Shown here: one piece after another, positions 11,468 through 60,979 of the stretch | Numbering within the stretch: the first letter of the stretch is position 1 | How the letters are laid out: the number at the start of each line of letters is the position of its first letter | Virus record (IMG/VR): IMGVR_UViG_3300037234_000551 | Coordinates: 8,603 to 72,602 of that record | Source of the DNA: a virus | Length of the DNA stretch: 64,000 nt | Direction: 5' to 3' (one strand) | Program-made: the position numbers and the translations under genes | The notes under the pieces: model-generated | The model's input: the letters and a program-made list of their open reading frames with translations, nothing else | Databases searched by the model: none | Told to the model about the DNA's origin: nothing

Positions 11468-11470
11468 GAG

Positions 11471-19528: not shown

Positions 19529-19597
19529 TTAAACTTGGTATTTTGGAACATTGAGACAATTACAAATGCCTATAGTACATCTCGAAGGGAGTATAGG

Positions 19598-20812: not shown

Positions 20813-20814
20813 AT

Positions 20815-33924: not shown

Positions 33925-33926
33925 AG

Positions 33927-34991
33927 ATGGATAAAATTCAAATTGTAAGTTGGCTCTTGACAAGGAGGTGTAATCTCTCCTGTGATTACTGCAGGATTGC
34001 GAGAGATTACAAAGCTAGACCGAAGAACGACTATCCATCTTTGGGTCATTACCTTAAGATGGAAATGTCAACGGGTTATGTGCTTGAATGTCTGGGCCGA
34101 CTTCATGCACATAATCCAAATTGCTTTCACATTTTGTATGGCGGCGAACCCTTACTAAGAAAGGATCTACCAGAGATTGTAAACTATTGTAATGACAATG
34201 ATATTAACTACACTATCATAACTAACAACAGCGATGAAGTTCAGCCAATGTTAGAAAATTTGATAGAGAAAACTGATTATATTACTGGACTGACATCCTC
34301 AATTGATCCAATCATCTTCTCAGCGGAGGAGGAATCGGACCGGGTCAAAAAGAGCATCAAGGGTCTTGAACGGCTAAGAAAGTATCGAGAGTGTATAAAA
34401 GATCTCGTTGCTGAGATAACCGTTGATAGCAAAACAGTTGGTCATTTATATCAACTTGTTTATGAGCTAACTCAACTGGGCATAAGCAGCGACATCACAG
34501 TCATTGACATCGCAAAGAGTCCATACTATGACTTTGCTCATATTACGGACTCGGATCTGCTAGTGCAGAAAGACAGTGTACTTCTAGATGCTTTCGGTCG
34601 AATCCTTGACAACAAACTAGATGTTCATATGGCCTCGGTCCTCCTCCCTGCGATAGTAAGTATACTTCCGGCAGAGTTGGATTGTGAAATTGAAAAGGAC
34701 GTGCACAACTTAACAATTGATGCAGATGGATCAGTTAGACTATGCCTTAGGATCAGGGGTAAGTCAACTCCGTCAATAAAAGCAATCAATTATATAAGTG
34801 AGGACGGACGTCTTAATCCTGTGTTGAAGAAGATGCTTGCAAAGGATAAGAAAAATTTCTGTCGGAAGTGTAACTGGACTTGTATGATTATGTCCAAATT
34901 GTTGTCGAAGAATCCAAATCTCTTTGATGACTTAATCCATAAGGAAAGGAGGGCAGATGGTAAAAAGGGCGTCTCCAAAATCAATGCATGA
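33927..34991 (+). CDS. radical SAM enzyme with SPASM/twitch-like C-terminus
   Basis: CNLSCDYC, GGEPLLR, IDADGSVRLC...CRKCNWTC. Confidence 0.88.
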   Translation: MDKIQIVSWLLTRRCNLSCDYCRIARDYKARPKNDYPSLGHYLKMEMSTGYVLECLGRLHAHNPNCFHILYGGEPLLRKDLPEIVNYCNDNDINYTIITNNSDEVQPMLENLIEKTDYITGLTSSIDPIIFSAEEESDRVKKSIKGLERLRKYRECIKDLVAEITVDSKTVGHLYQLVYELTQLGISSDITVIDIAKSPYYDFAHITDSDLLVQKDSVLLDAFGRILDNKLDVHMASVLLPAIVSILPAELDCEIEKDVHNLTIDADGSVRLCLRIRGKSTPSIKAINYISEDGRLNPVLKKMLAKDKKNFCRKCNWTCMIMSKLLSKNPNLFDDLIHKERRADGKKGVSKINA

Positions 34992-39385: not shown

Positions 39386-40368
39386 CTGACGGAAATCAAG
39401 AAGTACCTGACGACGATGTCTTTTATGTAGTCGCAGGGAACGGCATTTTCATTAGAAAGAAATTGGGAATCTTGGATGCGCTAGTTCCGGCAACTAAAAT
39501 ACCTCATTTGAATCATGTGGTTTCGTATGCAACGCTAGACTTGCCAAGAATCCCAAAAAATGATTTTGCCGAAATTGTTAGTTTCTTTAGAGAAGTTTAC
39601 GAGGAACATAAGGCTGAAGCAGTTGCTTTACTTCACTTCAATGAAGATAAAAAACATTATAAGATTCAAATACCTTTTCAAGAAGTTACTGGAGGTTCTG
39701 TTGACTATGAAAGAACTTTACCTTGGCAAGAACAGGGGTACATTCTTATGTGTACTATTCATAGTCATGCTGGATTTGGAGCTTTTCACTCCACTACAGA
39801 TCACACAGATGAGAAGCACTTTGATGGTTTACACATAACTGTTGGAGATCTCAGCAAAGACCTTCACACTATTTCAACATCAGTTGTGGTAAATGGTAAG
39901 CGCTTTATAACTGATACCCACGAGTATGTTGAAGGAGTAGAGGATATTGAGTACACTAACTATACTCAACATATGTTTCGCCCTACTTTCAAAATGGTAA
40001 AGGGGGTGAAAGTTTACGAGAAAGAAGTTAAGAAGCAGAAAGGTTTTCATGTTGAGAGTGTTCCCTTTGAGCGTACGTGGATGGACTTTGTTGAAAGAAA
40101 ATCTCCTACAGTTTATTATGTGGGATTACCACACGCTCAGCGAGGTAGGGTTCAATCCCCTGTCGATCCCAGCGAAATGCCCCACGGATCCTGGCTCCCA
40201 CATTGGTACAGACGTCACGGAATCGTCATTAACCCCGACGAGTACGACCCTTTTGACGGTCTTGAACCGGATGAAGGTGGTGGTGGATTCTATACTGGGC
40301 AAGAAGTGTTCCACCAACAAGAACTCCCCCTAATTCCTGAAGATAAAGAGGAGTCTGGCGATGATTAA
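39367..40368 (+). CDS. JAB/JAMM metalloprotease (deubiquitinase-like)
   Basis: EAVALL...TIHSHAGFGAFHSTTDHTDE (E...HxH...SxxD). Confidence 0.85.
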   Translation: MFNVFVADGNQEVPDDDVFYVVAGNGIFIRKKLGILDALVPATKIPHLNHVVSYATLDLPRIPKNDFAEIVSFFREVYEEHKAEAVALLHFNEDKKHYKIQIPFQEVTGGSVDYERTLPWQEQGYILMCTIHSHAGFGAFHSTTDHTDEKHFDGLHITVGDLSKDLHTISTSVVVNGKRFITDTHEYVEGVEDIEYTNYTQHMFRPTFKMVKGVKVYEKEVKKQKGFHVESVPFERTWMDFVERKSPTVYYVGLPHAQRGRVQSPVDPSEMPHGSWLPHWYRRHGIVINPDEYDPFDGLEPDEGGGGFYTGQEVFHQQELPLIPEDKEESGDD

Positions 40369-41065
40369 CCCCCCTTCTGAGTTATCCATCAAAGTCATAG
40401 GTATAGGTGGAGTCGGTACAATCCTGGCAGATAAACTTTCCAGATTCCTGAATTATGGTAATGGAGTTGATACCAGGATTACTTTTGTAGATGGAGATAC
40501 CTTTGAACCAAAGAACAGAGATAGGCAAGAATTTGCAATCGCTGGAGGCAAGAAGTCATTAGTAAAGGCCTCCGAGTTTCAAGAGAAGTATCACGAATTA
40601 AATTACAGTGCATTTGATGAATATGTTAATCCCCGTAATGTAGGTACGTTTATCAAATCGGGAGACATAGTCTTCGTATGCGTAGATAATCATAAGACGA
40701 GAAAAATAATCTCAGATTTTACCAAAACACTCAGTGACATTGTTGTAATATCAGGAGGGAATGAGTTCACTGATGGCAATGTTCAAATCTTTGTCAGAAG
40801 GGAGGGTAGAAGTTTAACCCCGTCATTGAGTGATTACCACCCGGAAATTGAACATCCAAAGGACAGGACACCGGGTGAAATGACTTGCGAGGAATTAGCA
40901 CAATCAGAACCCCAGTTATTCTTCACAAACCTTGGAGTTGCAACGTTTATGTGCTTTGCATTCTACAATACTGTTGTGAAGAATAACCCCAGTTACTCTG
41001 AAGTATACTTCGATGTCCTATCAATGAAAGCAGATTCGAAATCCAGAAAACCCTTAGATTCTTAA
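40361..41065 (+). CDS. ThiF/E1-like ubiquitin-activating enzyme
   Basis: VIGIGGVG, VDGD.FEPKN.DRQ, CVDNHKTR, candidate catalytic TCEE. Confidence 0.88.
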   Translation: MINPPSELSIKVIGIGGVGTILADKLSRFLNYGNGVDTRITFVDGDTFEPKNRDRQEFAIAGGKKSLVKASEFQEKYHELNYSAFDEYVNPRNVGTFIKSGDIVFVCVDNHKTRKIISDFTKTLSDIVVISGGNEFTDGNVQIFVRREGRSLTPSLSDYHPEIEHPKDRTPGEMTCEELAQSEPQLFFTNLGVATFMCFAFYNTVVKNNPSYSEVYFDVLSMKADSKSRKPLDS

Positions 41066-42180: not shown

Positions 42181-43050
42181 GTGAAACAAAGAATCGCAAT
42201 CCTTGGAGTCGGATCTTTAGGTGGCTATCTAGCGGAAAGTTTAGCTAGTACTGATAGTCTAAAAGAATTAATTTTGATTGACAATGACATTGTACAAGAG
42301 AAAAATACTAGAAATTCGATTTACACAAAAAGAGACGTTGGAGATTTAAAAGTAAATGCCATGTATAATCTCTTGAAGTCTCTCAATGAAGATATTATAA
42401 TAGCAATATCCAGAGAGAAATTTATAGAAGGAGAAACCGAACTTCCCACCTGTGACTTAGTCATAGATTGTAGAGACTATGTCTATGATCGAGGCGATGT
42501 AATAGATGTTCGAGCATCTATTTCTGGCCGATACCTTATTATCGACTGTCGAAAAAATGTAACATATCCTTTTAATTACGACGGCAGATATAACCTACCT
42601 TTAAAGAAAACTGATCTTAAGAATGCTGCACTACAGCTTGCTATCCTAATTGATAGTAATAGTATTATTAATCAGTGGGTAGCTGAGCAGGAAATATATG
42701 AGCTAAGTTTAGATCATCACGCAAGAGAGATTAGAAGAGATATTCAAGATAGAAGAAAAGACACAGATTTAGTTTATGAACCTGACGTAGATGATGCTAG
42801 ACTACTAAAACTAGAACAGAGTTTTCGGCCAATTATGGAGGTAAATCAAAAGAAGGATGTTAAAGTTTGCTTGGGTGAGAAGGAGAGGCATGTTGGTTGT
42901 AAGATTGTTCCTAGAGGCCAATTGAACACCCCTCAGGCTGTAGTCTCCAGTTTAAAATCGGTAATGAATCTCTATCCGTTTGAAAGGAGTTTCATAATTC
43001 GAGTTGAGGGAGATCATATTCAGTTATTATTTGTTACGGGCGGTGCGTGA
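42181..43050 (+). CDS. second ThiF/E1-like protein with MoaD/ThiS-like C-terminus
   Basis: ILGVGSLGG, LIDND.V.EKN.RN, DLVIDC.D; ends EGDHIQLLFVTGGA. Confidence 0.75.
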   Translation: MKQRIAILGVGSLGGYLAESLASTDSLKELILIDNDIVQEKNTRNSIYTKRDVGDLKVNAMYNLLKSLNEDIIIAISREKFIEGETELPTCDLVIDCRDYVYDRGDVIDVRASISGRYLIIDCRKNVTYPFNYDGRYNLPLKKTDLKNAALQLAILIDSNSIINQWVAEQEIYELSLDHHAREIRRDIQDRRKDTDLVYEPDVDDARLLKLEQSFRPIMEVNQKKDVKVCLGEKERHVGCKIVPRGQLNTPQAVVSSLKSVMNLYPFERSFIIRVEGDHIQLLFVTGGA

Positions 43051-43374: not shown

Positions 43375-46080
43375 ATGCCAAGTCTTCTTGACATTAACGA
43401 GTTTTCTAAGGAGTTAAAAGAAGTTACCTCAATAAAGATGATGGCGAAAAAGAAGTTCCATCCAAAAGGACTGTTCTCTGAGCAGATCTTCGGCCCAGTT
43501 AGGAATTTTACTTGTCAGTGTGGTACGTATTATGGAATTTCTGGTGCTGGTGGAACTTGTGCTGTATGTGAGGTTGATATTGTTAATAGTGATGAGAGGA
43601 GAAGGAAGTTTGCTAGAATAATCCTTCCTTTTCCGGTTGTGAATCCAATTTTCTATGAATTGGTAGCTGATATTGGAGGTTCAAAAATAAAAGGCCTTCT
43701 AGATAGTTTAATGAGAAATGAACAAAGTATTTTATATGTGATTGACGATGAATATGGAGTCGCTACTGATGATTCAGCGATTCCATCTGGTGCAGAGAAA
43801 TTTGAGAAAGTTGTAGCAATTGACAAACTTGTAAGGGACCTTTCCCATATGTTTGTTGAGGATGGTATTCTTGAGTGGAAAGTGATTAGAGATAACTTGG
43901 ACAAACTGTTTATACACAATGTCCTTGTATTGCCCCCTGACCTTAGACCGGCTGCGAAAAATATTGAAAGAAACAACCAAGTGGTTGATCAAATAAATAG
44001 ATATTACATTCAGATACTTACGAAGAAAGAAATTATGAGAGACACAATAGTTGACATACATAGGGATAAGAAGCTTTTCTATAGCTACTTTACCCAAATT
44101 CAGAAAGATGTGAATGAGTTGTACTCACACATTATTTCTAAATTAGCAAAGAAGGAAGGTCTGATTAGGGGAAATATCTTAGGTAAGAGAATTGATTTTT
44201 CTGGTCGAGCTGTGATAATTCCTGACCCTGTATTGAAATTAGATGAATGTGTTTTACCTTACCTGATGTTTCTCGAACTGTTCAAATTACAGATATCTAA
44301 GAAACTCATAGAGATTGGTAGATTTAAATTACTGAATGATTCTATTGACTTTGTTGATGATTGTATAGAAATGAGATCTCCAGTGCTCTATCGAGTTTGT
44401 GAAGAAATTGCTGAGGATGAAGTCTGTTTACTGAATAGACAACCTTCATTACACCGATTGAGTATGGTTGGTTTTAACATCAAAATATCTCTAGATAATG
44501 TTATTAAGATCCATCCATTAGCATGCCCTGGTTTCAACGCTGATTTTGATGGAGATCAAATGGCAGTCTACATTCCAATTTCTGAAGAATCAAAGAATGA
44601 GGTGAGAGAAAAATTTCTCATAACGAAAAATTTGAGTAATCCAGCGAATGAGAGTTTAGCAACAATTCCAAGTCAAGACATAATTCTTGGAGTATTTGCC
44701 CTAACAAATGATAGTTTTTCTGAATTATCAAATAAAGTTGAGTTCAAGGGAGAACAAGTTAACGAAGGAGTAAAGATATTTAATGAATGTTTACCAGAGG
44801 ACTATCCTCTGATTAATGAGGCAGTTAGAAAGAGAAAGTTGATGATTATACTCAATGATATTAAAAATAGATATGATGTGGAAGTTGTTCAGGAAGTTCT
44901 AGATAAGATAAAATTTATTGGTTTTAAGTACTCAACCTTATTTGGGGCGACCATGTCTCTTGACTCATTTGATGGAGATTTGTCCAAGATAAAAGATGAG
45001 ATATACTCGGGTCAAAGTATAAGAAATCAGATTGAAATGATCTCTAGTGAAAAAACCACAAAGGCGCTTCGAGACAGTTTTAAGTATTCATACATGGTTG
45101 AGTCTGGAGCAAGAGGAAGTTGGGATCAGGTTGGGCAGATAATATTGACCCGAGGTTTTATCTCCAATTTCAAAGGTCAAATTCTTCAGACACCAATTAA
45201 ACATAGTCTTTTAGAAGGTTTGACTCATGAAGAGTTTTTCAACTCCACATATGGTTGCAGAAAAGGACTCTTGGATGTTGCACTCAATACTGGTGCGTCT
45301 GGTTATTTGTCAAGGAAGTTAATCTTTGCTTGTGCAAATCTTCAGATTGGAGACCACGAAGATTGTGGAACAACTGATCTTCTTGAAGTCCATGTGAAGA
45401 ATGATAGAAAGGCAAGAATGCTGATTAATAGGCACTACAATGATAATGGAAATCTAGATAAGATAACTAGTGAGAATCATTTATCTTTTGTCGATAAAGT
45501 AATTAATATTAGAAGTCCAATATTTTGCAAAACTTCAAAAGTATGTAGAACATGCTACGGAGACTTGTATAAAGTTTTGGATAGTAGGTTTGTTGGAGTT
45601 ATTGCTGCACAAAGTCTAGGAGAGTGTAATACCCAACTCGTCTTAAGGACTTTTCATACATCTGGAGTTGCCCATGTGAAAGAGGGAGAACAAGCAGATG
45701 ATGAAGCAGTAAGACAGATGGATATTATTGGTGACCTTGCAACAGCATCTAAATTGCTACATAAGTTTGATAAGAAGAATCACACAAGTATTGTCTCTGA
45801 TCTCTTTGATGTCTACAACACAAATCGAAGCATCCATCATGTTCATTTTGAATGTGTGGTTTCTCAATTAATGTGGAAAGGCACAAGAAAGTGGAGACTG
45901 TTAGAAGGACGAGAAAAGTTAAGCCCAGAATATCACTCAGTACAGAAAGTACCAAGTTATGAGAGTTGGTTACTAGGTTTAGCATTTTCAAGACCAAAGC
46001 AACATATCTTAAAAGGAATTTTGCAACCAGGAAGATACTACGGAGTTATGGACAAGATTCTATGCGGAAAGGAGTTATAG
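43375..46080 (+). CDS. rpoC: multi-subunit RNA polymerase beta'-like subunit (set 2)
   Basis: GLFSEQIFGP, CQCG...CAVC zinc site, LGKRIDFSGRAVI, LNRQPSLHR, NADFDGD, RTFHTSG. Confidence 0.95.
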   Translation: MPSLLDINEFSKELKEVTSIKMMAKKKFHPKGLFSEQIFGPVRNFTCQCGTYYGISGAGGTCAVCEVDIVNSDERRRKFARIILPFPVVNPIFYELVADIGGSKIKGLLDSLMRNEQSILYVIDDEYGVATDDSAIPSGAEKFEKVVAIDKLVRDLSHMFVEDGILEWKVIRDNLDKLFIHNVLVLPPDLRPAAKNIERNNQVVDQINRYYIQILTKKEIMRDTIVDIHRDKKLFYSYFTQIQKDVNELYSHIISKLAKKEGLIRGNILGKRIDFSGRAVIIPDPVLKLDECVLPYLMFLELFKLQISKKLIEIGRFKLLNDSIDFVDDCIEMRSPVLYRVCEEIAEDEVCLLNRQPSLHRLSMVGFNIKISLDNVIKIHPLACPGFNADFDGDQMAVYIPISEESKNEVREKFLITKNLSNPANESLATIPSQDIILGVFALTNDSFSELSNKVEFKGEQVNEGVKIFNECLPEDYPLINEAVRKRKLMIILNDIKNRYDVEVVQEVLDKIKFIGFKYSTLFGATMSLDSFDGDLSKIKDEIYSGQSIRNQIEMISSEKTTKALRDSFKYSYMVESGARGSWDQVGQIILTRGFISNFKGQILQTPIKHSLLEGLTHEEFFNSTYGCRKGLLDVALNTGASGYLSRKLIFACANLQIGDHEDCGTTDLLEVHVKNDRKARMLINRHYNDNGNLDKITSENHLSFVDKVINIRSPIFCKTSKVCRTCYGDLYKVLDSRFVGVIAAQSLGECNTQLVLRTFHTSGVAHVKEGEQADDEAVRQMDIIGDLATASKLLHKFDKKNHTSIVSDLFDVYNTNRSIHHVHFECVVSQLMWKGTRKWRLLEGREKLSPEYHSVQKVPSYESWLLGLAFSRPKQHILKGILQPGRYYGVMDKILCGKEL

Positions 46081-46331
46081 TGAAAGTAGAAGGACTTCTA
46101 CATTCATTTGATGTGTCTTGTCAAACGAGACAATTTACTAGGAGGAGGTTATTGAGATTTATAAGATTGAATGCTCATTTACTAAAAGACCATCAATTTT
46201 ATGGATGGATAATGAAAAAAGTTGATAGGAACTATATGACTGATATTACAGATAGTGATGTGATAAATTTTGTAACATGGATTGCAAAAAAGACGGGAGG
46301 ACAAGTTGAACATACTCAATCCGTACTTTAA
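46080..46331 (+). CDS. hypothetical protein between RNAP subunits
   Basis: GTG overlapping the beta' stop; AAGGAG RBS. Confidence 0.5.
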   Translation: MKVEGLLHSFDVSCQTRQFTRRRLLRFIRLNAHLLKDHQFYGWIMKKVDRNYMTDITDSDVINFVTWIAKKTGGQVEHTQSVL

Positions 46332-49305
46332 AGTTAATGAGGAGAACAATATTTTTTCAATTCGAAAAAATGAACTCTCCTCCTTAACTGAGAAGGTAAG
46401 GGAAATTCTGAAACCTGCTGAGGAACTAGGATTTGAAGTAACTGATTTTTGTATCAAAGAATCAAAGTTTACCTCAGGAGAGTTGTTCAAAACCCTAAAG
46501 CAGAACTTGGTTATTAAGTTACAAAAAGGGAACTCTGAGATTGATCTGAGTATGGCAATACCAAAACTCATTGATCATAATTACATAATGATAAAAGGTA
46601 GGAAAAAGATTCCACAATTCCAACTTTTTGATATTCCCATTGTTACAAGAGGAAAATCAATTAAGTTAAGAACGAATGTTGCTTCAATAATGGTCTTTGA
46701 GGAAAGGCAACAACCACATATAAAATTGAGTATTCTTGGTAAGAAAGTCTCATTTGCTTTAATTATGTTTGCTTACTATGGATTAGAAGAAATGAATACA
46801 CGATTTGGTCTGTCTAATATGACAGTAAGTGGAAATACTGCACTTGATAAGCTAATGCTAGACTTGAAAGTCTACTATGATAACTCAAGAGATTGGACAC
46901 AAGATGATTTTATGAATGAGATTGGGAGACATTACTCTCAATACAATGTGAAGTCAAAGGGAGAAGATCTTATATATGCCCTTGATTTAATTCTTAAAAC
47001 TGATGTAATGTCAGCTGAATACTTTGCGACTGGATCTATATTAGAAGAATTATATGAGGCCATTGCTGGTAAAGAATATGATGATACCGACTTTAGAAAT
47101 AAGAGAGTTAGATGTGCAGAATATATGATTTTATCAAAGGTTTCAAAGGCTGTCTTTGATTTATGTATGTCTAATAGGACAACTCGTCAACCGAAGTTTA
47201 ATATAAACTCATCTCAGATTCTCTCTGAGTGTAATGTGTCTGATATTGTTCAATTCGATTTTGCGATTAACCCAATTGAAGAATTGACCAGGTTATCAAG
47301 AGTAAGTCTGATTGGACCTGGAGGTTTTAATCGTGAGAATGTTCCTGAGCATTTGAGAGACATTTGTCCTAGTATGTTTGGGAGAATATGTCCAGTTGAT
47401 ACGCCAGATAGAGATAACTGTGGAGTTATTCAGAACTTGCTTCCAAATGTGAAATTAGATAGCAATTTGAGATTTTCTGAGGAGGTTCTGGATAAACAAG
47501 TTATTTCTATTCCTGTTTCTATGGTTCCATTTCTTGAGCATAATGATCAGACGAGATTGCAGATGTCTGCATCTCAGATGAGACAGTCAATAATGCTGAG
47601 GAGTTTTGATAAACCCATAATTCAATCTGGTTGTGAAGGTCTATACACTGACTTCACTCAATTTGTTAAGAGAGCAAAAAAGAGCGGAGAAGTCGTACAT
47701 CAGGATGGTAAATTCTTAGTTGTTAAATATGATGATAATGAAACTGATGTTTTTGATATTGCGTATCGAAAGATATATGTTGAGAATATGGATATTATGA
47801 AAGTTTATGTTAAGGTTGGGGACAAGTTTGGAGCTGGAGAAATTCTAGCTGAAAGCGGTTTTGTCACTGACGGAGAAATAAACTTTGGAAGAAATCTGTT
47901 AACCGCTGTCATGACATACTATGGTCATAATTATGAAGATGGAATAGTTATATCTGACCGATTAGTTAAAGAGCGAATTTTTACTTCTATACACTATCGA
48001 GATTTATCATTTACGGTTCCACCAAATAAAGTTCTTTTGAGTCTAGCTAATAGTGATTATAAACCATTACCTGATATAATGGAAGATATAGATCCTGGTC
48101 AACCATATGCGACAATGAAAGAAGTAACATCTGGTTTAGACTTTTACTCCGTTTTTGAAGAACAAATGCCTCTTACAACCAGAAAGAAGGTTCGGATAAC
48201 TGATATAAGTATATATGCAAATGTGTGGAATAAGGAGATACCTGAGTATAGAGATTGGATTGAAAAGAAGCTAGAAGATCAAAAACAGAAGGAAAGTGAA
48301 TTTCAAAAGGTCATATTTGACCATCTTCCAACTGTAGAAGCAAAACAGTTTATTCGAGATCGAAATTTGAGTAAATTCTCTCACATTGGTCGATACAAAG
48401 TTAAGGGCGAACCAGTTAATGGAGTTCGTATTGAGATGTTTGGTGTCTATCTTAGACCAATACAGGCGGGAGATAAAATTGCAAACAGACATGGTAATAA
48501 GGGAGTTATCTCTAGGATAGTTCCACATGAGAAAATGCCTCAACTTCCGGATGGAAGGAATGTTGATATTTGTATAAATCCTCTAGGGATAATTTCGAGA
48601 ATGAACATTGGTCAGTTATTTGAGTTACACTTAGCAATGTCTTTTGTGGACTTAAAAGCAAAACTAATTGAAATGATTGATAAGGAGGAAAGTCAGAAAG
48701 ACATTAAGAAAGCGTTGCTTCATTATATTAAGACTGCGGATAATACTGAAGACAAATGGTATTATAAGCAGTTTAAAGAGCAACTTCCCAAAACAATTGA
48801 TAAAGGGTTTATTGATAAGTTGTCATTGATTCAACCTCCATTTGAGTCTGTTTCATTGGAGATGGTCAAAGAAGCAATGGGGAGAACAGGAACTCAATTT
48901 GAGTATGGTATTTATGATCCTATCTCGAAAGAAAATCTTCTAAATAAAATTGCTGTTGGTTATATCTATTTCTTTAAGATGGTTCATATAGCTGAGACAA
49001 GACTTGCAGCAAGGGGGATTGGATCATATGCAAAGAAAACCCTTCAACCGTTAGGAGGTAGAAAACACAGGGGCGGTCAGAGATGTGGAGAAATGGAAAC
49101 TGCGTGTCTAATTGCACATGATGGACCAGTTAATTTGGCTGAATTTCTGACAACAAAATCGGATTGTATAGACTTGAAAAATAGATATATCAACGAGACG
49201 ATTGAGTCAGAGTTCATCAAACCAAAAGAAGATGAAGATGATGTTTCTGAGTCGGTTAAATTGTTAGATGCATACTTTAATGTGATTGGAGTTTCGAAAG
49301 AATGA
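46306..49305 (+). CDS. rpoB: multi-subunit RNA polymerase beta-like subunit (set 2)
   Basis: GPGG, GRICPVDTPD, MSASQMRQS, GHNYEDGIVIS, GDKIANRHGNKG, GGQRCGEME; TTG start after GGGAGG. Confidence 0.95.
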   Translation: MNILNPYFKVNEENNIFSIRKNELSSLTEKVREILKPAEELGFEVTDFCIKESKFTSGELFKTLKQNLVIKLQKGNSEIDLSMAIPKLIDHNYIMIKGRKKIPQFQLFDIPIVTRGKSIKLRTNVASIMVFEERQQPHIKLSILGKKVSFALIMFAYYGLEEMNTRFGLSNMTVSGNTALDKLMLDLKVYYDNSRDWTQDDFMNEIGRHYSQYNVKSKGEDLIYALDLILKTDVMSAEYFATGSILEELYEAIAGKEYDDTDFRNKRVRCAEYMILSKVSKAVFDLCMSNRTTRQPKFNINSSQILSECNVSDIVQFDFAINPIEELTRLSRVSLIGPGGFNRENVPEHLRDICPSMFGRICPVDTPDRDNCGVIQNLLPNVKLDSNLRFSEEVLDKQVISIPVSMVPFLEHNDQTRLQMSASQMRQSIMLRSFDKPIIQSGCEGLYTDFTQFVKRAKKSGEVVHQDGKFLVVKYDDNETDVFDIAYRKIYVENMDIMKVYVKVGDKFGAGEILAESGFVTDGEINFGRNLLTAVMTYYGHNYEDGIVISDRLVKERIFTSIHYRDLSFTVPPNKVLLSLANSDYKPLPDIMEDIDPGQPYATMKEVTSGLDFYSVFEEQMPLTTRKKVRITDISIYANVWNKEIPEYRDWIEKKLEDQKQKESEFQKVIFDHLPTVEAKQFIRDRNLSKFSHIGRYKVKGEPVNGVRIEMFGVYLRPIQAGDKIANRHGNKGVISRIVPHEKMPQLPDGRNVDICINPLGIISRMNIGQLFELHLAMSFVDLKAKLIEMIDKEESQKDIKKALLHYIKTADNTEDKWYYKQFKEQLPKTIDKGFIDKLSLIQPPFESVSLEMVKEAMGRTGTQFEYGIYDPISKENLLNKIAVGYIYFFKMVHIAETRLAARGIGSYAKKTLQPLGGRKHRGGQRCGEMETACLIAHDGPVNLAEFLTTKSDCIDLKNRYINETIESEFIKPKEDEDDVSESVKLLDAYFNVIGVSKE

Positions 49306-51581: not shown

Positions 51582-51659
51582 ACGCACGTAGCTCAGTCTG
51601 GTTAGAGCATCGGGCTCCAAATCCGAGTGCCGGGGGTTCAAATCCCTCCGTGCGTGCCA
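51582..51659 (+). tRNA. tRNA-Trp(CCA)
   Basis: cloverleaf ACGCACG/CGTGCGT, anticodon loop CT-CCA-AA, encoded CCA. Confidence 0.92.
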
Positions 51660-51670
51660 TATGATTCTAT

Positions 51671-51744
51671 TGCCGGGTCGTCTAACGGTAGGACATAAGT
51701 CTTTGGAACTTATCATCGGGGTTCGAATCCCTGCCCGGCAGCCA
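51671..51744 (+). tRNA. tRNA-Gln(UUG)
   Basis: TGCCGGG/CCCGGCA, loop CT-TTG-GA, encoded CCA. Confidence 0.92.
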
Positions 51745-51819
51745 CACTGTGTGGCCAAGTGGTTAAGGCAACGGATTGCAAATCCGTGATCCCCGGTTCG
51801 AATCCGGGCACAGTGTCCA
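51745..51819 (+). tRNA. tRNA-Cys(GCA)
   Basis: CACTGTG/CACAGTG, loop TT-GCA-AA, U73, encoded CCA. Confidence 0.92.
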
Positions 51820-52251: not shown

Positions 52252-52544
52252 TTTATCCTTGCAAAGATTGTCTAGTTGATCCAATGTGTTCTGATAAGTG
52301 TATTGATTATCTTGCATTTGTCAATAGCTCAGCAGATAACCTAGGTGAAATGAGTGCTGACGAAATTGCATATATAATAACGGAAGTTCCACTTGAGATA
52401 AGAAGGAAGATTCAAAAATTTGTTAGTGAGGGAGTTCGTTACGCTGAGGATGTCCAGAGGAATTTTTATAGAGGAATTGAGATACACGGTTTTCGAACAG
52501 AGGAATCAAGCGAATGCTCAACTACCCTTGTAGGAATTGCTTAG
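52248..52544 (+). CDS. small PCxxCLx4Cx3C-family protein
   Basis: PCKDCLVDPMCSDKC. Confidence 0.65.
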   Translation: MIYPCKDCLVDPMCSDKCIDYLAFVNSSADNLGEMSADEIAYIITEVPLEIRRKIQKFVSEGVRYAEDVQRNFYRGIEIHGFRTEESSECSTTLVGIA

Positions 52545-52768
52545 TAGTCATTACATGCTCAGAGGAGTGTGATGATCTTCGTAGTTTTTTAGAAAACACT
52601 GCTGATATATATTACTTATTTACACAAGACGAACTCATCTCATACAGAGAGTTGCCGAATTCTGTAAGAAGTAGAATTTTTGATATGGCCTTTGTTGATG
52701 GTAGGGCCAGTAAACAATTATACCGAAAAAGAAGGGAGGAGCTTTATGGAGAATGTGCTACTGCTTAA
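52514..52768 (+). CDS. small PCxxCLx4Cx3C-family protein
   Basis: PCRNCLVVITCSEEC. Confidence 0.65.
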   Translation: MLNYPCRNCLVVITCSEECDDLRSFLENTADIYYLFTQDELISYRELPNSVRSRIFDMAFVDGRASKQLYRKRREELYGECATA

Positions 52769-53267
52769 TGCTGACTACACTTACTTGTGTTCGGTTCGTT
52801 GGCAAAGGGCGGTATGCCTTATGATTCAGAACAAAGTTGAAGTTTTGAAGCATGGTGACCGTCAAGTTGCTAACGTTGGGCGGACCGTCGTGATCACTCT
52901 TCCTTTGATCCTACGGCTACTGAGAATGGTCCGCTCAATTTACAAGAACAAAGTCCCATTTAGACCAAAGAATGTGATAATCCGGGACAACTGGACTTGT
53001 CAGTACTGCGGTAGCACGGATAAAGGAAATTTAACAATAGATCATCTAATTCCAAAGTCACGCAACGGAAAACATAATTTTGAAAACTGTGTGGCTTCTT
53101 GTAAAGATTGCAATAACAAGAAAGGCAATAGGACTCCAAGAGAAGCAAATATGTTTATCAAGAGGCAACCCTATCAGCCTACCATTTCTGAATTTCTCAT
53201 GCTGAGAATGAAAGAATACGGAATCCATGATCTATTGAAGGAGATATGGTGTGACTGCTCAAAGTGA
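52746..53267 (+). CDS. HNH endonuclease (McrA/HNH_5-like)
   Basis: VLLLNADY, RDNWTCQYCG, TIDHLIPKSRNG...NCVASC..CNNKKG.RTP. Confidence 0.88.
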   Translation: MENVLLLNADYTYLCSVRWQRAVCLMIQNKVEVLKHGDRQVANVGRTVVITLPLILRLLRMVRSIYKNKVPFRPKNVIIRDNWTCQYCGSTDKGNLTIDHLIPKSRNGKHNFENCVASCKDCNNKKGNRTPREANMFIKRQPYQPTISEFLMLRMKEYGIHDLLKEIWCDCSK

Positions 53268-53404: not shown

Positions 53405-53596
53405 CTTGGTGGCGATGTGGCGGCAACACATCTGCGTCTCAAAGACCTCAGACGCAACAGTCCTAAGTAGGTTAAAACTGAAAGGGCGGTTACCTCAAAC
53501 AACAGGGTAACGACAAATTAGTAGATCCCCTGCTCGGGAAGAGTGAGGCACTACTAGAAATGGTTTACCGTGTCGGCGAAAATCCGGCCCACCAAG
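53405..53596 (+). ncRNA. candidate structured ncRNA
   Basis: closing stem CTTGGTGG/CCACCAAG enclosing about five hairpins. Confidence 0.5.
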
Positions 53597-53892
53597 TTAA
53601 ATATCTTGGCCGAGCGTGACCCAGCACGTCCGGGAGCTCTGACTGGACTATATTCAACTCCCGGGTCAATTTTAAGGAGAGGAAAAGTGAAGAAGGAGAA
53701 ATTTATGGACTGCCTGTCGACTGCCTTTGGATATGGAATTCAGCAACGAAGCAGTAGAAATGAGAGTGTTGCCACTATCATAGCTTGGTGTGGTTATGCT
53801 AAGCTACCGAAGCCTCATACAAAAGCAATTTATGAAGCTTATAAGGCAGGACGTTGTGAGAAAAGTGCAAGAGTGGGCAAAATGGAGGACTT

Positions 53893-54330
53893 ATGAGTAA
53901 GCTGAGAGAGAGAGAGGATGTTATGAGTATTGAGAGATGGAGAGAATTAGCCGAAAGGGGAACATCTGGGGATATGGTTTATGGTATTCTCAGAGATTGG
54001 AAAGAAGAAGTTAAACAATTACAACAGTGGGTAGATGATCTTCAGTCTGAGATGTACATTAACTGTGTGTATTGTGGTCATCGCTATGGTCCACAGGATG
54101 AAGTGCCTGCTACTATGGCAGAAGCACTGAAAGAACATATTGAAATATGTGAAAAACATCCAATGATGAAGATAAGGATTGACAACGCTGAACTAGCAAG
54201 TAAGTTACTTCATAGGGAGAAGGAAGTAGAACCTCTAAGAGAGAATGTAAGAGGACTCTTTGAGATTATTGAGCTACTTAAAGAGCAGATAAAGGAGCTC
54301 CAAGATGGCAAAACTAATGATAGTAGTTGA
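53893..54330 (+). CDS. hypothetical protein with CVYC...H...C zinc finger and coiled coil
   Basis: GGAGG RBS; motifs. Confidence 0.6.
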   Translation: MSKLREREDVMSIERWRELAERGTSGDMVYGILRDWKEEVKQLQQWVDDLQSEMYINCVYCGHRYGPQDEVPATMAEALKEHIEICEKHPMMKIRIDNAELASKLLHREKEVEPLRENVRGLFEIIELLKEQIKELQDGKTNDSS

Positions 54331-54528
54331 TGTACCTGAAGTCTCATATAATAAACTACGAAGAGCAATGTTAGAACATCGAGATATTGGTGGAGTTTCT
54401 TTTGAAAAGAAAGGTACTGTTACTATTAGTAGTTATATAATAGAAGAGGCTCGACAGAAAGATATTCCGGCCTATGATCCATCAACACTTTATGAGTTTG
54501 GAATAATAGGAGTGAGACCTTAGTTAGA

Positions 54529-54608
54529 GTGTCGGTGGCCCGAATTGGTAAAGGGCGCAGGGTTGTGGCCCCTGTTGAGCGTGGGTTCGATTCCCACCCG
54601 ACACCCCA
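54529..54608 (+). tRNA. tRNA-His(GUG)
   Basis: GTGTCGG/CCGACAC, loop TT-GTG-GC, C73, encoded CCA; position -1 is A. Confidence 0.88.
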
Positions 54609-54621
54609 TGAAAGGATATCA

Positions 54622-54900
54622 ATGCATGAACTACAAGATTGTGTGAAATATTTGCGTAAGAGCATTCATAATGCTCATATGATTAAAGTTATACCTATTG
54701 TTGTGGTACTGGATGCCGATGGAGAATTGATACATAATCACATGGAGCATCCAGAACCAATTACTAGACCTCAACTTATAAAAATTTTGGCCAACTTACA
54801 TGAACAAGTTGCTAAAGATTATAATAATCTAAAAAAGACAGCAGCAGATCCAAAGGAAGCAGAAAGAATTCTACATTGTTTAAGTGGACCAATCCCATAG
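54622..54900 (+). CDS. hypothetical protein whose 3' end overlaps the first array unit
   Basis: AAGGA RBS, ATG 54622. Confidence 0.55.
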   Translation: MHELQDCVKYLRKSIHNAHMIKVIPIVVVLDADGELIHNHMEHPEPITRPQLIKILANLHEQVAKDYNNLKKTAADPKEAERILHCLSGPIP

Positions 54901-56264
54901 AGCAACCCAAACACAACGAGTGAACCAGCCCATGAGAGCAATCCAAACACAGAGAGTGAACCAGTTTGAGTTAGTAAACCAATGACGAAGAGTGAACCTT
55001 CTACCATCAGAAAACCATACGATGAGAGTGAACCAAGTGAAGAGGAGAAATCCATTGGGACAGAGTGAACCAACAGTCCATAGAAACCTAGATAGTAAAG
55101 TGAACCAATGCTATCCAGTTAACCTGAGCGGAGGAAGTGAACCAGAAGTCCGCAGTAACCAACGAACATGAGTGAACCACGAACACGAAATAAACCAGCC
55201 GAGATTAGTGAACCAGAGTATGTCAGAATCCAACAAAAGAAAGTGAACCAGTCTGTATAAGATAACCTATAGAAACTAGTGAACCAGTATGGTAAAGAAA
55301 TCCTTTGCGGTCAAGTGAACCATGGAGCCCGAGTAACCCGGTGATCATGTAGTGAACCACGGGATGCCAGTAAACCACTCCTTTTCAGTGAACCTGTACC
55401 ATTAATGAAACCATCCATGGCAAGTGCACCAGAAACGAATTAGAACCCCATATACATAAAGTGAACCATCAATTGAAAATAAATCCGAACACTCTTAGTG
55501 AACCAACTCGGTGTAGTAACCCCGATGGCCAAAGTGAACCCAAGACGGTGCAGCAATCCAGACGGTCAGAGTGAACCAGAGGTGCAAAAAAATCAACTAT
55601 GCAAAGTGAACCCAGCTCGATTAGAAACCCAATTGAGGTAAGTGAACCACAAGCTGCAAGCAACCCTCCGGAATGTAGTGAACCGATGTAGTATAGCAAA
55701 CCAAAGTAGTATAAGTGAACCATTCGATGAAAGTAACCCATTGTAAAACAGTGAACCATGCCACAACAGAAATCCAACCCAGAAAAGTGAACCATTTAAT
55801 GAAGAGAAAAACCAATCAAGGTAAGTGAACCACCGTGATTTAGAAAACCTGTGGATCCAAAGTGAACCTTTATGAACAAGAAAACCAATGTTGTTTAGTG
55901 AACCAACAGTGTCCAGTAATCCACCGAAGAAGAGTGAACCATCATGTTTTAGACAACCACTACGACTAAGTGAACCAACAGGGAGCAATAATTCAGCGAC
56001 CCGAAGTGAACCAAATCATTACAGAAAATCAAGAGGCATAAGTGAACCATAAGAAACAAGACAACCGGTCATAGGGAGTGAACCACCATGATTCAGAATA
56101 CCTGGAATCCAGAGTGAACCACAGTATGTCAGAAAACCACCAAGACTGAGTGAACCATCTCTGTAGAGAAATCCAATGAACACCAGTGAACCAGCGAATC
56201 CGAGAAATCCAGAGGATGATAGTGAACCATGTAGAACAAGAAACCCTTGAAAACCTAGTGAAGG
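54883..56264 (+). repeat. TIGR-like dual-repeat, dual-spacer array (38 units, ~36 nt)
   Basis: unit = AGTGAACC-N~10-AGHAAHCC-N~10; 39 edge repeats counted from 54883 to 56257, spacing 35-38 nt (mostly 36); spacers variable. Confidence 0.88.
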
Positions 56265-56271
56265 GGAGCCA

Positions 56272-56481
56272 ATGGCAACGATTATACAAATTGAAAAAGA
56301 AAGATTTGATGAGTTATTTCAACACACATTAGATGTATTGGGCCTAGATAGGTTTAAACATGGACGAAGTAAGACAAGTGGAAGAGACGATGCTGTATTT
56401 GAGAATTCTCCTGTTGGAGAAATGCATCGAATGTTTCACTATGAAGTGTGTAAATTAAAAGGTAAACTTGAAAAGGCCTAG
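56272..56481 (+). CDS. hypothetical protein
   Basis: RBS GGGGAG overlaps the degenerate last array repeat. Confidence 0.55.
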   Translation: MATIIQIEKERFDELFQHTLDVLGLDRFKHGRSKTSGRDDAVFENSPVGEMHRMFHYEVCKLKGKLEKA

Positions 56482-56492
56482 GAGGATGTTAT

Positions 56493-56984
56493 ATGAAAAT
56501 AGATTATAAGGTGAAGTGTAATTGTGGTAATAATTTAATTATCACAGATGCAACGATTAATCATGCGAAGGGAGAAATATCATTTTTCGTTCACGATCAT
56601 GAATGTGAAAATCCCTTTATAAAAGTTCTTGAGTCAGGGAAACAAGTAAAAATGACAGTTGAGAAGTGTCAATGTCCCACTGGACAACACGAAGCACGTG
56701 GACGGTCTATTGACGTACCTGTTATTGAGGACACCCTAACTCTTAAAGCAGTTAGAGTAATTCATTGTACACACTGCAAAATCAACTATGTCAGGGACGA
56801 TTATCTAGAGCAACTTGAACGACGGTTTACCCGGGCGGGTATACCTACAAACAAAACTTTTCTGTGGGGAATGATTTCTAAGGGTTTGGACTATTGGGAA
56901 AAGAAATTTGGCACTAAATACGAAACTAAGGAGGAGGGCGGACATGGCGGAGCAGCAGGAGAAGAAGGAGATGATGATAATTGA
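56493..56984 (+). CDS. Cys-rich double zinc-ribbon hypothetical protein
   Basis: CNCG...HEC and CQC...CTHC. Confidence 0.55.
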   Translation: MKIDYKVKCNCGNNLIITDATINHAKGEISFFVHDHECENPFIKVLESGKQVKMTVEKCQCPTGQHEARGRSIDVPVIEDTLTLKAVRVIHCTHCKINYVRDDYLEQLERRFTRAGIPTNKTFLWGMISKGLDYWEKKFGTKYETKEEGGHGGAAGEEGDDDN

Positions 56985-57495
56985 GGGCATGAAGAGGTTG
57001 CGAGTCATCAAAAAGAGAATGGCGCACAATATTGAAAGCGTCAACAAGTACGCTGCCATTGTCTCAAATGAGCGACCTATGTTTGGCTCTGAGGATGAAC
57101 AGAAGAAGGAAGTCAAACAGATAATTCAATCTAACCTTGATTTGCTCAATGAGTATCTCAAGTTAAAAAAGCGAATTGAAAGAACAAATTTACAAACTGT
57201 GGTCGAGATTGGTGGAGTGGACTATACAATTAGCGACCTGCTGATTCTCAAGAGAGAGTTGGTTCAACTCGTTGTACAGACTTATGATGCCTTGAATACC
57301 AGCCAAGCACAGATGAAACTCAATGCTATGTCAAGGCAGCATCATGTCGCTGGTCAGCAGGGTGAAAGTTTACGAATCGACCATATGTTTGATGAAAAGG
57401 AGAAGAACAAAGAGTTGAGGAAATGGCAAGATCTCTATGATAATATTGATAGTCGTCTAGAGGTCATAAATGCTACAACCACATTAATGGATTAA
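56944..57495 (+). CDS. DIP1984/DUF6847-like helical coiled-coil protein
   Basis: KRIERTN..TVV.I.G...TISDLL..K and IDSRLEVINATTTL resemble the family consensus as recalled. Confidence 0.6.
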   Translation: MAEQQEKKEMMIIEGMKRLRVIKKRMAHNIESVNKYAAIVSNERPMFGSEDEQKKEVKQIIQSNLDLLNEYLKLKKRIERTNLQTVVEIGGVDYTISDLLILKRELVQLVVQTYDALNTSQAQMKLNAMSRQHHVAGQQGESLRIDHMFDEKEKNKELRKWQDLYDNIDSRLEVINATTTLMD

Positions 57496-57789
57496 AAGGA
57501 GTTTGGGCTTCGGTGGCGTAATCTAGGTAGTATGAGAGCGTACGTCTAAAACGTCATTTAGACAACAGCATATAAGCTGAGACTATTCCTGTCAAGACTC
57601 AAGACTTAGTCTACCGTCCTATTAAGGAGTAGACTTTCATGACTAACTCAGCGTCCCACTGAGGGTAAACCTTGGGATCTTCAAGACTCAAGATAACAAG
57701 ACTAAAGAGTATGAAAAATCCGGATTAAACAGTGCTGCCTCCTCTCAGGCAGACCAGCACTACCGGCTGCTATAGGGAGCCCTCCTTTT
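57494..57789 (+). ncRNA. candidate structured ncRNA with CAAGAC repeats
   Basis: ends pair (AAAAGGAG..GGGCTTC / GGAGCC-CTCCTTTT); internal hairpins; two tandem TCAAGAC clusters. Confidence 0.55.
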
Positions 57790-58249: not shown

Positions 58250-59012
58250 AGAATTCGTGGGATTTCCAGATTGGGGATTTATTCAAGATATATACAGAGA
58301 ACCTCCTGGAGATCAAAATTATAACACCTTGAAGCTAAAGAGATGCACTGAGCAGCTTTATAAGTGGTATGATCAATTTCCTGAGTGTTCAACGTGTGCT
58401 CTTGATCAACAAGATCCAATTCCTGATTGCTATAAAGAATGTAGATATAAGAAAAAACCAGTTGGGGTAAAAGGAGGACCTATACAAATAATTGAAACTA
58501 GAAGAAGGTTTCCGCCAGGTTATGATACTCCTTATGGAACTATACTGATTCCTAGGGGTATGCTTTACTTTAACTATGAAAATGATCTCCCATTTTGGTT
58601 CAGATGTGGAAACGGTAATGGTTTTCACTTCCATCACAAAAATGGAATATCTTACGATGATCGTGCTGAAAATCGTTGTATAACGGATATCCATGGGCTA
58701 ATCCATGGTTCACAAAGAACCATTAAAGCAGGCACAAACTTTTCTAATCTGCTCTTCGAAAATGAAAAGATTGATGAAAGCGAGAGGGAAAGATTAGTTG
58801 GCTATTTTGATAAACTTATGTCTAGATTTCAGGATCAACAAGATAGCCCACGACTCTGGATTTTTATCCATGATATGAAAGCTGCAGTTGGTGCTTATGA
58901 AGTATATGGTGAAATTCCTAGCGTGTTAGTTGATGCTATCCTTTCTCACATGCCAGAAAGTGTAGTTGCTAATTTGACGAAGAGAGGAGTGGATCTCAAA
59001 TATGGATTGTAA
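58242..59012 (+). CDS. HNH-motif-containing protein
   Basis: FHHKNGISYDDRAEN...H...H. Confidence 0.55.
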   Translation: MAKEFVGFPDWGFIQDIYREPPGDQNYNTLKLKRCTEQLYKWYDQFPECSTCALDQQDPIPDCYKECRYKKKPVGVKGGPIQIIETRRRFPPGYDTPYGTILIPRGMLYFNYENDLPFWFRCGNGNGFHFHHKNGISYDDRAENRCITDIHGLIHGSQRTIKAGTNFSNLLFENEKIDESERERLVGYFDKLMSRFQDQQDSPRLWIFIHDMKAAVGAYEVYGEIPSVLVDAILSHMPESVVANLTKRGVDLKYGL

Positions 59013-59853
59013 ACTAAACCTACCAGACATTCAATGTACAGAACCAGCGATTAAGATACCAATTTATCAAGTGGGAGTCGAGAACGTTGAAGTTCCCTTT
59101 ATGCTTGAATCAAAATTTGGAGGTTTTCAAGACATGGTTGCAAAAGTGTCAATGAGAACCAACTTAGAGGATAATACCAGAGGGATATCAATGTCTCGAC
59201 TCCTCATTACATTGAAACCATATTTAAGAAAACCTCTTAAGCATTTTCTAATTAATGAAATTCTTATGAGTTTGAAAGATAATATTGGATCAACTTCTAG
59301 TTTTATAAAGTTCGAATTTAAACTTCCGGTGTTGAGAAAGTCTCCAGTATCGGATAATGAATTTCCTATTTATTATAACTGTAAATTTGAAGGGCAACTT
59401 GACAATGGAGAGTTTAGATTTTTTCAAGGTATTCGAGTTCAATATTCATCTTACTGCCCTTGTTCAGCAGAACTATGTGAAGACCTAAGTGGTAAAGGTT
59501 CGTCTGGTTATCCGCATGCTCAGAGATCATTTGCTGACTTACTAATTGAGACAATAGAGCCAAATTATGTTTGGCTAGAAGATATAATCGAAACAGTTGA
59601 GATGGCTGTTCATACATTACCCTACCCAGTTATTAAAAGAGTAGATGAACAGGAGATTGCTCGAATTGCTGCAGACAATCCAATGTTTGTTGAAGACGCA
59701 ATTCGAGCAATCTCTCAACAATTAAATAAGAGAGAAGATATTTATGATTGGATTGTGAAGTGTATACACGAAGAATCAATTCATACATCCGAAGCAATTG
59801 CGATGAACTATAAAGGAGTTGAAAATGGGTTTGATGGAAGATACTTTCTCTGA
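59002..59853 (+). CDS. folE2: GTP cyclohydrolase IB
   Basis: LPDIQ, RGISMSRL, SYCPCSAE, PHAQRS, KRVDE, NPMFVEDAIR, HEESIH. Confidence 0.92.
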   Translation: MDCKLNLPDIQCTEPAIKIPIYQVGVENVEVPFMLESKFGGFQDMVAKVSMRTNLEDNTRGISMSRLLITLKPYLRKPLKHFLINEILMSLKDNIGSTSSFIKFEFKLPVLRKSPVSDNEFPIYYNCKFEGQLDNGEFRFFQGIRVQYSSYCPCSAELCEDLSGKGSSGYPHAQRSFADLLIETIEPNYVWLEDIIETVEMAVHTLPYPVIKRVDEQEIARIAADNPMFVEDAIRAISQQLNKREDIYDWIVKCIHEESIHTSEAIAMNYKGVENGFDGRYFL

Positions 59854-60901: not shown

Positions 60902-60979
60902 CGGATAGTGGCGCAGTCTGGTTAGCGCACCTGCTTTGGGAGCAGGGGGCCGGAGGTTCGAATCCTCTCTATCCGACCA
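60902..60979 (+). tRNA. tRNA-Pro(UGG)
   Basis: CGGATAG/CTATCCG, loop TT-TGG-GA, encoded CCA. Confidence 0.93.

Follow-up and report, generated by a model that had tools for sequence, protein, structure and literature searches.

The array and its genomic setting

The stretch of DNA analysed here (hereafter the window) comprises the last 64 kb of a viral contig of 72,602 bp with a completeness rating of 23%, and it carries on its + strand, at 54883..56264, a long dual-repeat array surrounded by genes that all lie on the same strand. Immediately 5' of the array locus we found a tRNA-His gene (54529..54608, +), the only match in an Rfam search of the locus, followed by an ORF of 92 aa (54622..54900, +) for which no family match was obtained and which shows 55% identity to the ORF located 5' of the syntenic array in the related loci L074/L065. 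The 3' end of this ORF overlaps the first unit of the array (54883..54918, +), which covers its final codons and stop. On the other side, the next ORF begins 8 nt after the array and encodes 69 aa (56272..56481, +), with an RBS-like GGGGAG overlapping the terminal degenerate edge repeat. Next comes a conserved ORF of 163 aa (56493..56984, +) with a weak zinc-ribbon/YokU-like match, which constitutes the 3' boundary of the syntenic array in L037, L008, L074 and L065. A blastn search of 53500-57600 against 50,697 phage records returned zero matches.

Regarding expression signals, 16 promoter-like sites were found against 11.8 expected, i.e., no enrichment, and no convincing promoter was found 5' of the array; such a sigma-70 scan says little, because the phage encodes its own RNA polymerases. 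Between the array and the ORF at 56272 there is no terminator-like site on the + strand, and read-through transcription together with the neighbouring genes would be the simplest inference from this arrangement. An RNA-labelled sequencing run contained two contigs, over 55063-55202 and 55550-55722, which may give a weak hint of array transcription (DNA carry-over being possible, and strand, ends and processing not being visible in contigs). The sequencing-run data consist of contigs throughout, and gaps in their cover carry no meaning; the DNA runs X1-X3 contain 99% of the window.

Repeats and spacers

The array consists of 38 units followed by a degenerate terminal partial edge repeat (AGTGAAGG, 56257-56264, +), and each unit is ordered as edge repeat AGTGAACCA, 9-nt spacer A, loop repeat AGnAAnCCA and 9-nt spacer B. 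Most units are 36 nt long (25/38), the others measuring 37 nt (8/38), 35 nt (4/38) and 38 nt (1/38). The edge repeats that start a unit are exact copies of AGTGAACC in 36 of 38 cases, the exceptions being unit 1 (AGTGGACC) and unit 16 (AGTGCACC), and the loop repeat keeps its 5' AG in 33 and its 3' CC in 35 of the 38 units. An A stands directly 3' of the edge repeat in 32/38 units and directly 3' of the loop repeat in 26/38, and the edge repeat reads AG...CCA in nearly all units of the window. A sequence logo of the 25 regular 36-nt units is conserved at positions 1-9 (AGTGAACCA) and 19-27 (AG-a-AA-a-CC-A) and carries almost zero information at positions 10-18 and 28-36; the unit is therefore a 9/9/9/9 arrangement of two different 9-nt repeats and two 9-nt spacers. 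A first-pass annotation, made from the letters of the window, had counted 38 units starting at 54883 with a period of mostly 36 nt (35-38) and degenerate first and last repeats, and all of this was borne out by our unit count and by the two terminal repeats (AGTGGACC and AGTGAAGG), which are degenerate and not clearly truncated. Its variable parts of about 10 nt are indeed variable, but according to the logo each is better divided into the A of CCA and a spacer of 9 nt.

Across the 64 kb, AGTGAACC occurs 37 times on the + strand, 36 of these within the array, and not once on the - strand, where the base composition leads one to expect 0.83 copies per strand, so that a chance origin of the clustering is excluded. 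Tandem Repeats Finder reported just two short stretches of the array, because the variable spacers lower the overall similarity. A 144-nt piece of the array has a folding energy of -16.2 kcal/mol compared to -22.7 +/- 4.2 for shuffled sequences and is thus less stable than these, which suits unstructured dual-repeat guides over stem-loop guides. CRISPR arrays combine a single repeat of about 25-36 nt with spacers of similar size and with cas genes. A CRISPR array was rejected for this locus, where the repeats are of two kinds and 9 nt long, the spacers measure 9 nt, and Cas families are absent among 55 ORFs.

A Tas-associated repeat family

In dual-repeat TIGR arrays, by definition, an edge repeat alternates with a loop repeat (8-12 nt each), the spacers measure 9 nt and the tigRNAs 36 nt; each repeat has a box C 'CCA' at its 3' end and at its 5' end a box D, which co-varies between the two (PMC12045711). 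In sequence terms the window array shows just these elements, with alternating repeats, the same spacer length and recognisable boxes C and D. The published arrays have truncated edge repeats at both ends, typically followed by a rho-independent terminator, and in the TasR arrays described there box D is 'UG' (PMC12045711). The AG found at this place in the window had been regarded as a possible variant of the TG box, an idea that the SpTIGR array of Salicola phage CGphi29, which served for the biochemical and structural work on TasH, makes unnecessary: inspecting its sequence 3' of tasH, we found the repeats AGCGAGCCA and AGACAACCA, both of the form AG...CCA, so that the AG boundary is an already validated state.

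We scanned viral contigs for three copies of AGTGAACC spaced 26-30 nt apart, which yielded 118 stretches, kept as 116 loci. The largest ORF cluster in these loci comprises 56 ORFs (36 distinct) of 235-451 aa that adjoin the arrays. Its members match PF02371 and phrog_4285, the latter being annotated as 'transposase'. For one member the match to PDB TasH spans the Nop domain (E 7.8e-17), and the TasR structure chain 9mty is matched as well. An HMM of the cluster matches in 64 of the 116 loci, at 0-2449 nt from the array, several of these loci overlapping on one contig so that not all are independent; among the 52 loci lacking such a match, 38 have less than 8 kb of sequence on at least one side. 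The Tas proteins that accompany AGTGAACC arrays share only 22-35% identity with each other, and besides Tas no other ORF cluster recurs beside these arrays in unrelated loci. Considering the Tas HMM matches beside 64/116 loci, the repeat family of the window is, by homology, a Tas-associated family. Together, the logo, this Tas-linked repeat family and the likeness to SpTIGR support the earlier assignment to a TIGR-type dual-repeat/dual-spacer array. The scan also caught L047, L061 and L075, which were rejected as TIGR arrays, being coding repeats with a 12-nt period; L030 and L060 have no 36-nt chain of at least 4 units, and L055 and L071 have short chains of 3-4 units.

No effector gene on the contig

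We searched the 72.6-kb contig for Tas with Pfam Nop (PF01798), Transposase_20 (PF02371), phrog_4285 and a custom Tas HMM built from 36 distinct Tas sequences, and obtained no match (best E 1.3); a Pfam scan of 55 ORFs likewise returned neither Nop nor Cas families. Accordingly, no tas adjoins the array: none lies within the up to 55 kb upstream or the 7.7 kb downstream that the window covers, nor elsewhere on the contig. The first-pass annotation had seen no Nop/Tas or Cas ORF in the 64 kb and had proposed a search with Nop/Tas/IS110-related HMMs; the searches uphold the absence and extend it to the entire 72.6-kb contig. The ORF at 52680-53267 was considered as a TasH and rejected, since it is a stand-alone phage HNH endonuclease (phrog_16726, E 3e-31) with just 44 residues past the HNH motif, and inspection of its frame overlap with the ORF at 52514-52768 revealed no Nop-like sequence.

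Syntenic arrays and a distant tas gene in related phages

Arrays syntenic with that of the window occur in L037 (44 units), L008 (15 units), L074 (27 units) and L065 (27 units), where they sit between homologous flanking genes whose proteins are about 65-98% identical. Within about 10 kb of these four arrays the cluster HMM detected no Tas, and no tas was found anywhere in the fragments L037 and L008. L065 is carried by a complete relative (G002) of 277,131 bp with terminal repeats and a completeness rating of 100%. This genome contains exactly one tas match, at 218,138-219,298, and array units at just two sites. The units at 219.3-220.8 kb adjoin tas on its upstream side, and those at 75.5-76.5 kb form the syntenic array; tas and both arrays share one strand. 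In this complete relative, therefore, a second array of the same repeat type adjoins tas, and the syntenic array lies about 142 kb away from it. A 224-kb relative (G001) shows the same layout, with an intact tas and the syntenic array.

The window contig corresponds collinearly to the interval 68.7-135.3 kb in the complete relative, and the expected position of tas would therefore lie outside the contig, about 83 kb past its 5' end. On a further contig (L139), 52 units precede a tas gene whose product shares 83% identity with the Tas of the complete relative, a divergence similar to what other proteins show when the window lineage is compared with this relative. A split layout is found elsewhere as well, with about 65 kb between the array of L063 (at least 40 units) and the Tas in L057, and about 50 kb between L053 and the Tas in L028, in both cases with Tas and repeat variants distinct from those of the window lineage. 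For the arrays L026 and L062, no Tas was found within 10 kb on either side.

Because the contig represents 23% of a genome and the single tas of the complete relative lies at 218 kb, the effector gene most likely lies in another part of the genome, and no new partner protein would be needed. What had appeared as a missing effector is most likely explained by an incomplete contig combined with a split-locus layout as in the relatives, not by a new effector. Of the three options considered in the first-pass annotation (elsewhere, highly diverged or a new partner), the first is favoured by the 23% contig and the collinear relative with its distant tas, and the last is disfavoured by the co-occurrence of the neighbouring genes with an ordinary tas. 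The assignment of an effector acting in trans is drawn from these relatives, no tas being seen for the window phage itself, and it is to be read as a prediction for the window phage.

The Tas protein of the relatives

The Tas of the relatives is a protein of 387 aa that matches just PF02371 and phrog_4285. Its predicted fold has a mean pLDDT of 80.5, and the top 10 PDB matches are all TasH/TasR chains, followed by IS621 recombinase and Nop5. The predicted structure is helical over the first 150 residues and has a small sheet inserted at residues 196-238. No HNH or RuvC domain was detected with Pfam or with PHROGs, and the protein can therefore be called TasA-like, apparently without a recognisable nuclease domain. 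According to a 2026 preprint, TasA and dead TasR are RNA-guided repressors (bioRxiv 10.64898/2026.09.09.750476). SpTasH is described as processing its pre-tigRNA by itself via Y289 and H296 (PMC13421893). The consensus of the Tas family studied here reads P-Y-x4-L-G-H-x-H, of which the 387-aa protein keeps the Y, has an I at the position of H296 of SpTasH and an H two residues further on. Given this I, autonomous processing is uncertain, so that self-processing by the 387-aa Tas appears plausible, not assured. A peptide of this Tas had no match among the rows listed of Table S1 in PMC12045711.

Guide sharing, turnover and conservation

Both spacers of unit 8 of the window array (55136..55170, +) recur without change in the syntenic arrays of L037 and L008 and, in the more distant relatives G001/G002, in unit 28 of the array next to tas (L046). 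In L139, the array beside tas has near-copies of units 7 and 27, with 1 and 2 differences, respectively, in 20 positions, and a counterpart of unit 31 with 4 mismatches occurs in the proximal array of the 224/277-kb relatives. The guides conserved across phages are those of units 7, 8, 10, 13, 24, 27 and 31. Some guides are thus found in the distal array of one phage and in the proximal array of another, and these common guides argue that both arrays would feed the same effector, with units either moving between the arrays or being kept for the same targets.

Among the 38 units of the window, collinear counterparts were found for 14 in L037, 8 in L008 and 5 in L074; the unmatched units are scattered along the entire array, and the shared ones include the first that is recognisable as well as the last. 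The genes flanking the array differ between the window and L037 at 9.3% of all sites and at 149/803 = 18.6% of the four-fold sites (nine genes), compared to differences at 1/112 edge, 11/109 loop and 20/282 spacer positions in the 14 common units. Simulating spacer change at the four-fold-site rate with the same ascertainment, 48.5 differences were expected against the 20 seen, and 0 of 200,000 runs gave 20 or fewer. Compared to four-fold sites, conservation of the retained spacers is higher by a factor of about 2.6. The retained guides therefore look constrained, as far as this comparison goes, while whole units come and go; four-fold sites are a mere proxy of neutrality, and recent recombination of units could equally yield identical spacers.

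Turnover is also visible within the population, as a contig from DNA run X6 represents a variant of the window array in which four stretches are skipped or replaced and the tRNA-His gene is absent. Within the array itself, unit 1 resembles unit 2 (2/9 mismatches in spacer B), and 3 pairs of A spacers have 2 or fewer mismatches compared to 0.85 in column shuffles, a number reached in 19/500 shuffles; for similar B-B and A-B pairs no enrichment over the shuffles was observed. The likeness of units 1 and 2 and the spacer A pairs give a weak hint that duplication contributes to array growth.

Search for targets

Guides of the window (n=38) and of the complete relative (n=66) were scanned in the configurations rc(A)+B, B+rc(A), A+B and B+A, counting matches with up to 1 mismatch, and neither the contig nor the complete relative contained any. 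The other viral loci, 1.1 Mb in total, yielded a single 1-mismatch match (unit 29, in L045), where shuffled pairings led one to expect 0.15; this match is a lead only. The bipartite target check proposed in the first-pass annotation, run on the contig, the complete relative and the 1.1 Mb of viral loci, gave match numbers no different from those of shuffled pairings. With no match of up to 1 mismatch in either phage, self-regulation of the phage genome via perfect 18-bp sites is unlikely; DNA of the host or of a competitor is the remaining candidate for a target.

Discussion

Taken together, we regard the region as very probably a tas-distal TIGR array of a jumbo phage whose effector is encoded elsewhere in the genome. 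This reading draws on the array architecture, the homology to tas-adjacent arrays, the synteny, the distant tas of the relatives, the guide sharing and the spacer conservation; transcription, processing, the tas of this particular phage and the outcome of binding are predictions made from it. The array would be part of a + strand transcript that also includes the surrounding + strand genes, and this transcript would be bound by a dimer of a Nop-fold Tas protein encoded elsewhere in the genome and cut inside the edge repeats, giving about 38 guide RNAs of 36 nt. Each guide would pair with its two 9-nt spacers to opposite strands of an 18-bp DNA site, and the targets would lie outside the phage genome. 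Since the Tas of the relatives is TasA-like, without a recognisable nuclease domain, the outcome would more likely be RNA-guided DNA binding or repression than cleavage.

Several other explanations have to be weighed. The array might be a decaying and functionless remnant in a lineage that has lost tas, as the absence of tas from the 72.6 kb examined, and likewise from the fragments L037 and L008, could suggest. We consider this improbable, because the edge repeats are exact in 36/38 units, the retained spacers are better conserved than four-fold sites (about 2.6 times), the syntenic array coexists with an intact tas in both G001 and G002, the L139 Tas has diverged from that of G002 (83% identity) much like other proteins between the window lineage and this relative, and the contig covers just 23% of its genome. 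Phages are known to carry orphan CRISPR mini-arrays that use host Cas proteins, and by analogy Tas could be supplied in trans by another element, i.e., a co-infecting phage, a prophage or the host. The contig without tas would agree with this, and a foreign Tas might accept the guides, as AGTGAACC is common to arrays whose Tas proteins are just 22-35% identical; yet the complete relative encodes a tas of its own and has arrays of this repeat type, so that a tas of the phage itself is the simpler source, and the data give no pointer to a second element, so that such a supply is very unlikely.

An even slighter chance is given to a new, non-Nop effector that is encoded by a neighbouring gene and loads the array. 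The neighbours at 54622, 56272, 56493 and 58242 have no Pfam or PHROG match of useful score, which would speak for this reading, but the same neighbours flank the syntenic array in phages with a standard tas, no ORF cluster besides Tas recurs beside AGTGAACC arrays in unrelated loci, and the repeats bear the box C/box D anchors that are read by the Nop domain. That the region is no guide-RNA array at all, and instead a decayed coding region for a 12-aa repeat or a set of phased protein-binding DNA sites (iteron- or centromere-like), is hardly credible: a period of 36 is a multiple of 3, open stretches on the - strand reach up to 140 codons, and the pattern scan did catch true 12-nt-period coding repeats (L047, L061 and L075), but units of 35, 37 and 38 nt break the frames, all frames are interrupted by stop codons (24-53 per + frame and 7-16 per - frame), the variable parts carry near-zero information, the repeat family is tied to Tas genes, and relatives differ by gain and loss of whole units.

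Returning to the tas-distal array with an effector encoded elsewhere, it represents a known kind of system, the dual-repeat TIGR, in an undescribed split-locus arrangement. Tas-distal arrays are mentioned neither in PMC12045711, nor in the accessible part of the preprint 10.64898/2026.09.09.750476, nor in a full-text literature search, a scope that leaves aside TIGRSafari and the preprint supplements. TIGR-Tas was first described in 2025, and the published surveys (PMC12045711; 10.64898/2026.09.09.750476) state that spacer gain and natural targets are unknown. Our data illustrate that large phages can keep long arrays (38-44 units) far from tas, and the sharing of guides between distal and proximal arrays as well as the scattered whole-unit differences combined with conserved spacers bear on both the annotation and the evolution of arrays. 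We lean, with some reservation, towards a split multi-locus TIGR system of a jumbo-phage lineage, in which a single tas would serve two or more arrays lying over 100 kb from one another, guides would be traded between the arrays, whole units would be gained and lost internally, and the retained guides would be under purifying selection. If this is true, tas-distal arrays form a guide reservoir missed by tas-centred catalogues and could explain some of the 'arrayless' Tas branches, and the syntenic arrays of close relatives constitute the first natural data set on the growth of TIGR arrays.

Comparison with known systems

Among the published systems, TIGR-TasA (e.g., FpTIGR of Flavonifractor plautii; PMC12045711) fits with its 9-nt spacers, 36-nt units and nuclease-less Nop-only effector the 387-aa Tas of the relatives. 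The SpTIGR-TasH system of Salicola phage CGphi29 (NC_020844; PDB 9w03, 9w04 and 21kl; PMC12045711, PMC13421893) is, like the window array, a phage-encoded dual-repeat system with 36-nt units, and the repeats are of the AG...CCA form in all cases (edge AGCGAGCCA versus AGTGAACCA, loop AGACAACCA versus AGnAAnCCA). However, the SpTIGR array is located directly downstream of tasH and ends with a hairpin and a T-run, whereas the window array has neither a nearby tas nor a terminator; the variable part of SpTIGR was published as 16 nt compared to 18 nt in the window, and its effector is a TasH, whereas no HNH domain was detected in the Tas of the window's relatives. Published TIGR arrays most often have 5-15 units, compared to 38 in the window array, the syntenic counterpart of which lies about 142 kb from tas, and the published array searches extended to 5 kb or less from tas (PMC12045711) or to 10 kb or less (10.64898/2026.09.09.750476).

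A cultured phage offers a further comparison, as the 'transposase' ORF034 of the 231-kb Ralstonia jumbo phage phiRSL1 is 30.7% identical to the Tas of the relatives over 90% of its length and is followed on its 3' side by an unannotated stretch of about 1.4 kb in which degenerate AGTGAnCC / AGnCAnCC repeats recur roughly every 36 nt. This array adjoins its gene, and its repeats are more degenerate than those of the window. Orphan CRISPR arrays, finally, resemble the window array in that guides are kept apart from the effector genes on the same replicon and are served in trans, and in that close relatives differ by gain and loss of whole units. They are unrelated in repeat and guide architecture and in protein family, and the unit differences of the window array are distributed along the whole array, not at one leader end.

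Probable TIGR loci and one guide match in other viruses

The record of the cultured jumbo phage phiRSL1 of Ralstonia (NC_010811.2) makes no mention of a TIGR-Tas locus, yet the phage seems to have one, because ORF034 (13180-14217), annotated there as a 'transposase', is a homologue of Tas, the Nop-fold effector of TIGR systems, with 30.7% identity to the 387-aa Tas type of the window's relatives, and is followed by an unannotated, degenerate 1.4-kb array of ~36-nt dual-repeat units (14217-15643). Further 36-nt dual-repeat arrays were identified at four other viral loci (L063, L053, L026 and L062), with loop repeats that vary among these lineages, e.g., GCGAGCCA in L026. No Tas was found in the examined flanks of these four arrays; for two of them, the contig does bear a Tas, at a distance of ~50-65 kb (array L063 with Tas in L057, 83.5-kb contig; array L053 with Tas in L028, 112.7-kb contig).

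Among all guides of the window's array, a single near-perfect tandem match was obtained, against a chance expectation of 0.15. Here the reverse complement of spacer A of unit 29 is followed by spacer B, with one mismatch, at positions 15475-15492 of L045, another viral contig, which bears its own Tas and array.

Genomic context of the array

A stand-alone HNH endonuclease (window 52680-53267; phrog_16726), located 1.6 kb upstream of the array, is kept in all four syntenic relatives with 84-92% identity; it does not represent TasH, the HNH-bearing form of Tas. The window also encodes five tRNAs (Trp, Gln, Cys, His and Pro; 51582-51819, 54529-54608 and 60902-60979), and a population variant in sequencing run X6 lacks an 87-nt stretch containing tRNA-His.

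RNA polymerase genes occur at two places in the window, in each case as a beta'-like and a beta-like gene that are both large and unsplit (8465-15901, 1000 and 1363 aa; 43375-49305, 901 and 1007 aa), which fits the expectation for a jumbo phage with its own virion and non-virion polymerases. A QueD-like 6-pyruvoyl-tetrahydropterin synthase (27505-27924), a radical SAM protein (33915-34991) and the type I GTP cyclohydrolase FolE2 (59002-59853) together suggest a putative 7-deazaguanine (queuosine-precursor) pathway, possibly serving DNA modification. Furthermore, a prokaryotic JAB-domain protein adjoining two ThiF (E1-like) proteins (39355-41065 and 42181-43050) suggests a putative phage ubiquitin-like conjugation or deconjugation module. 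Finally, an AAA-like ATPase gene followed by one for a DUF2201 metallopeptidase/VWA protein (19535-22164), a pair that is also kept in the complete 277-kb relative, resembles gene pairs of the MoxR-VWA type.
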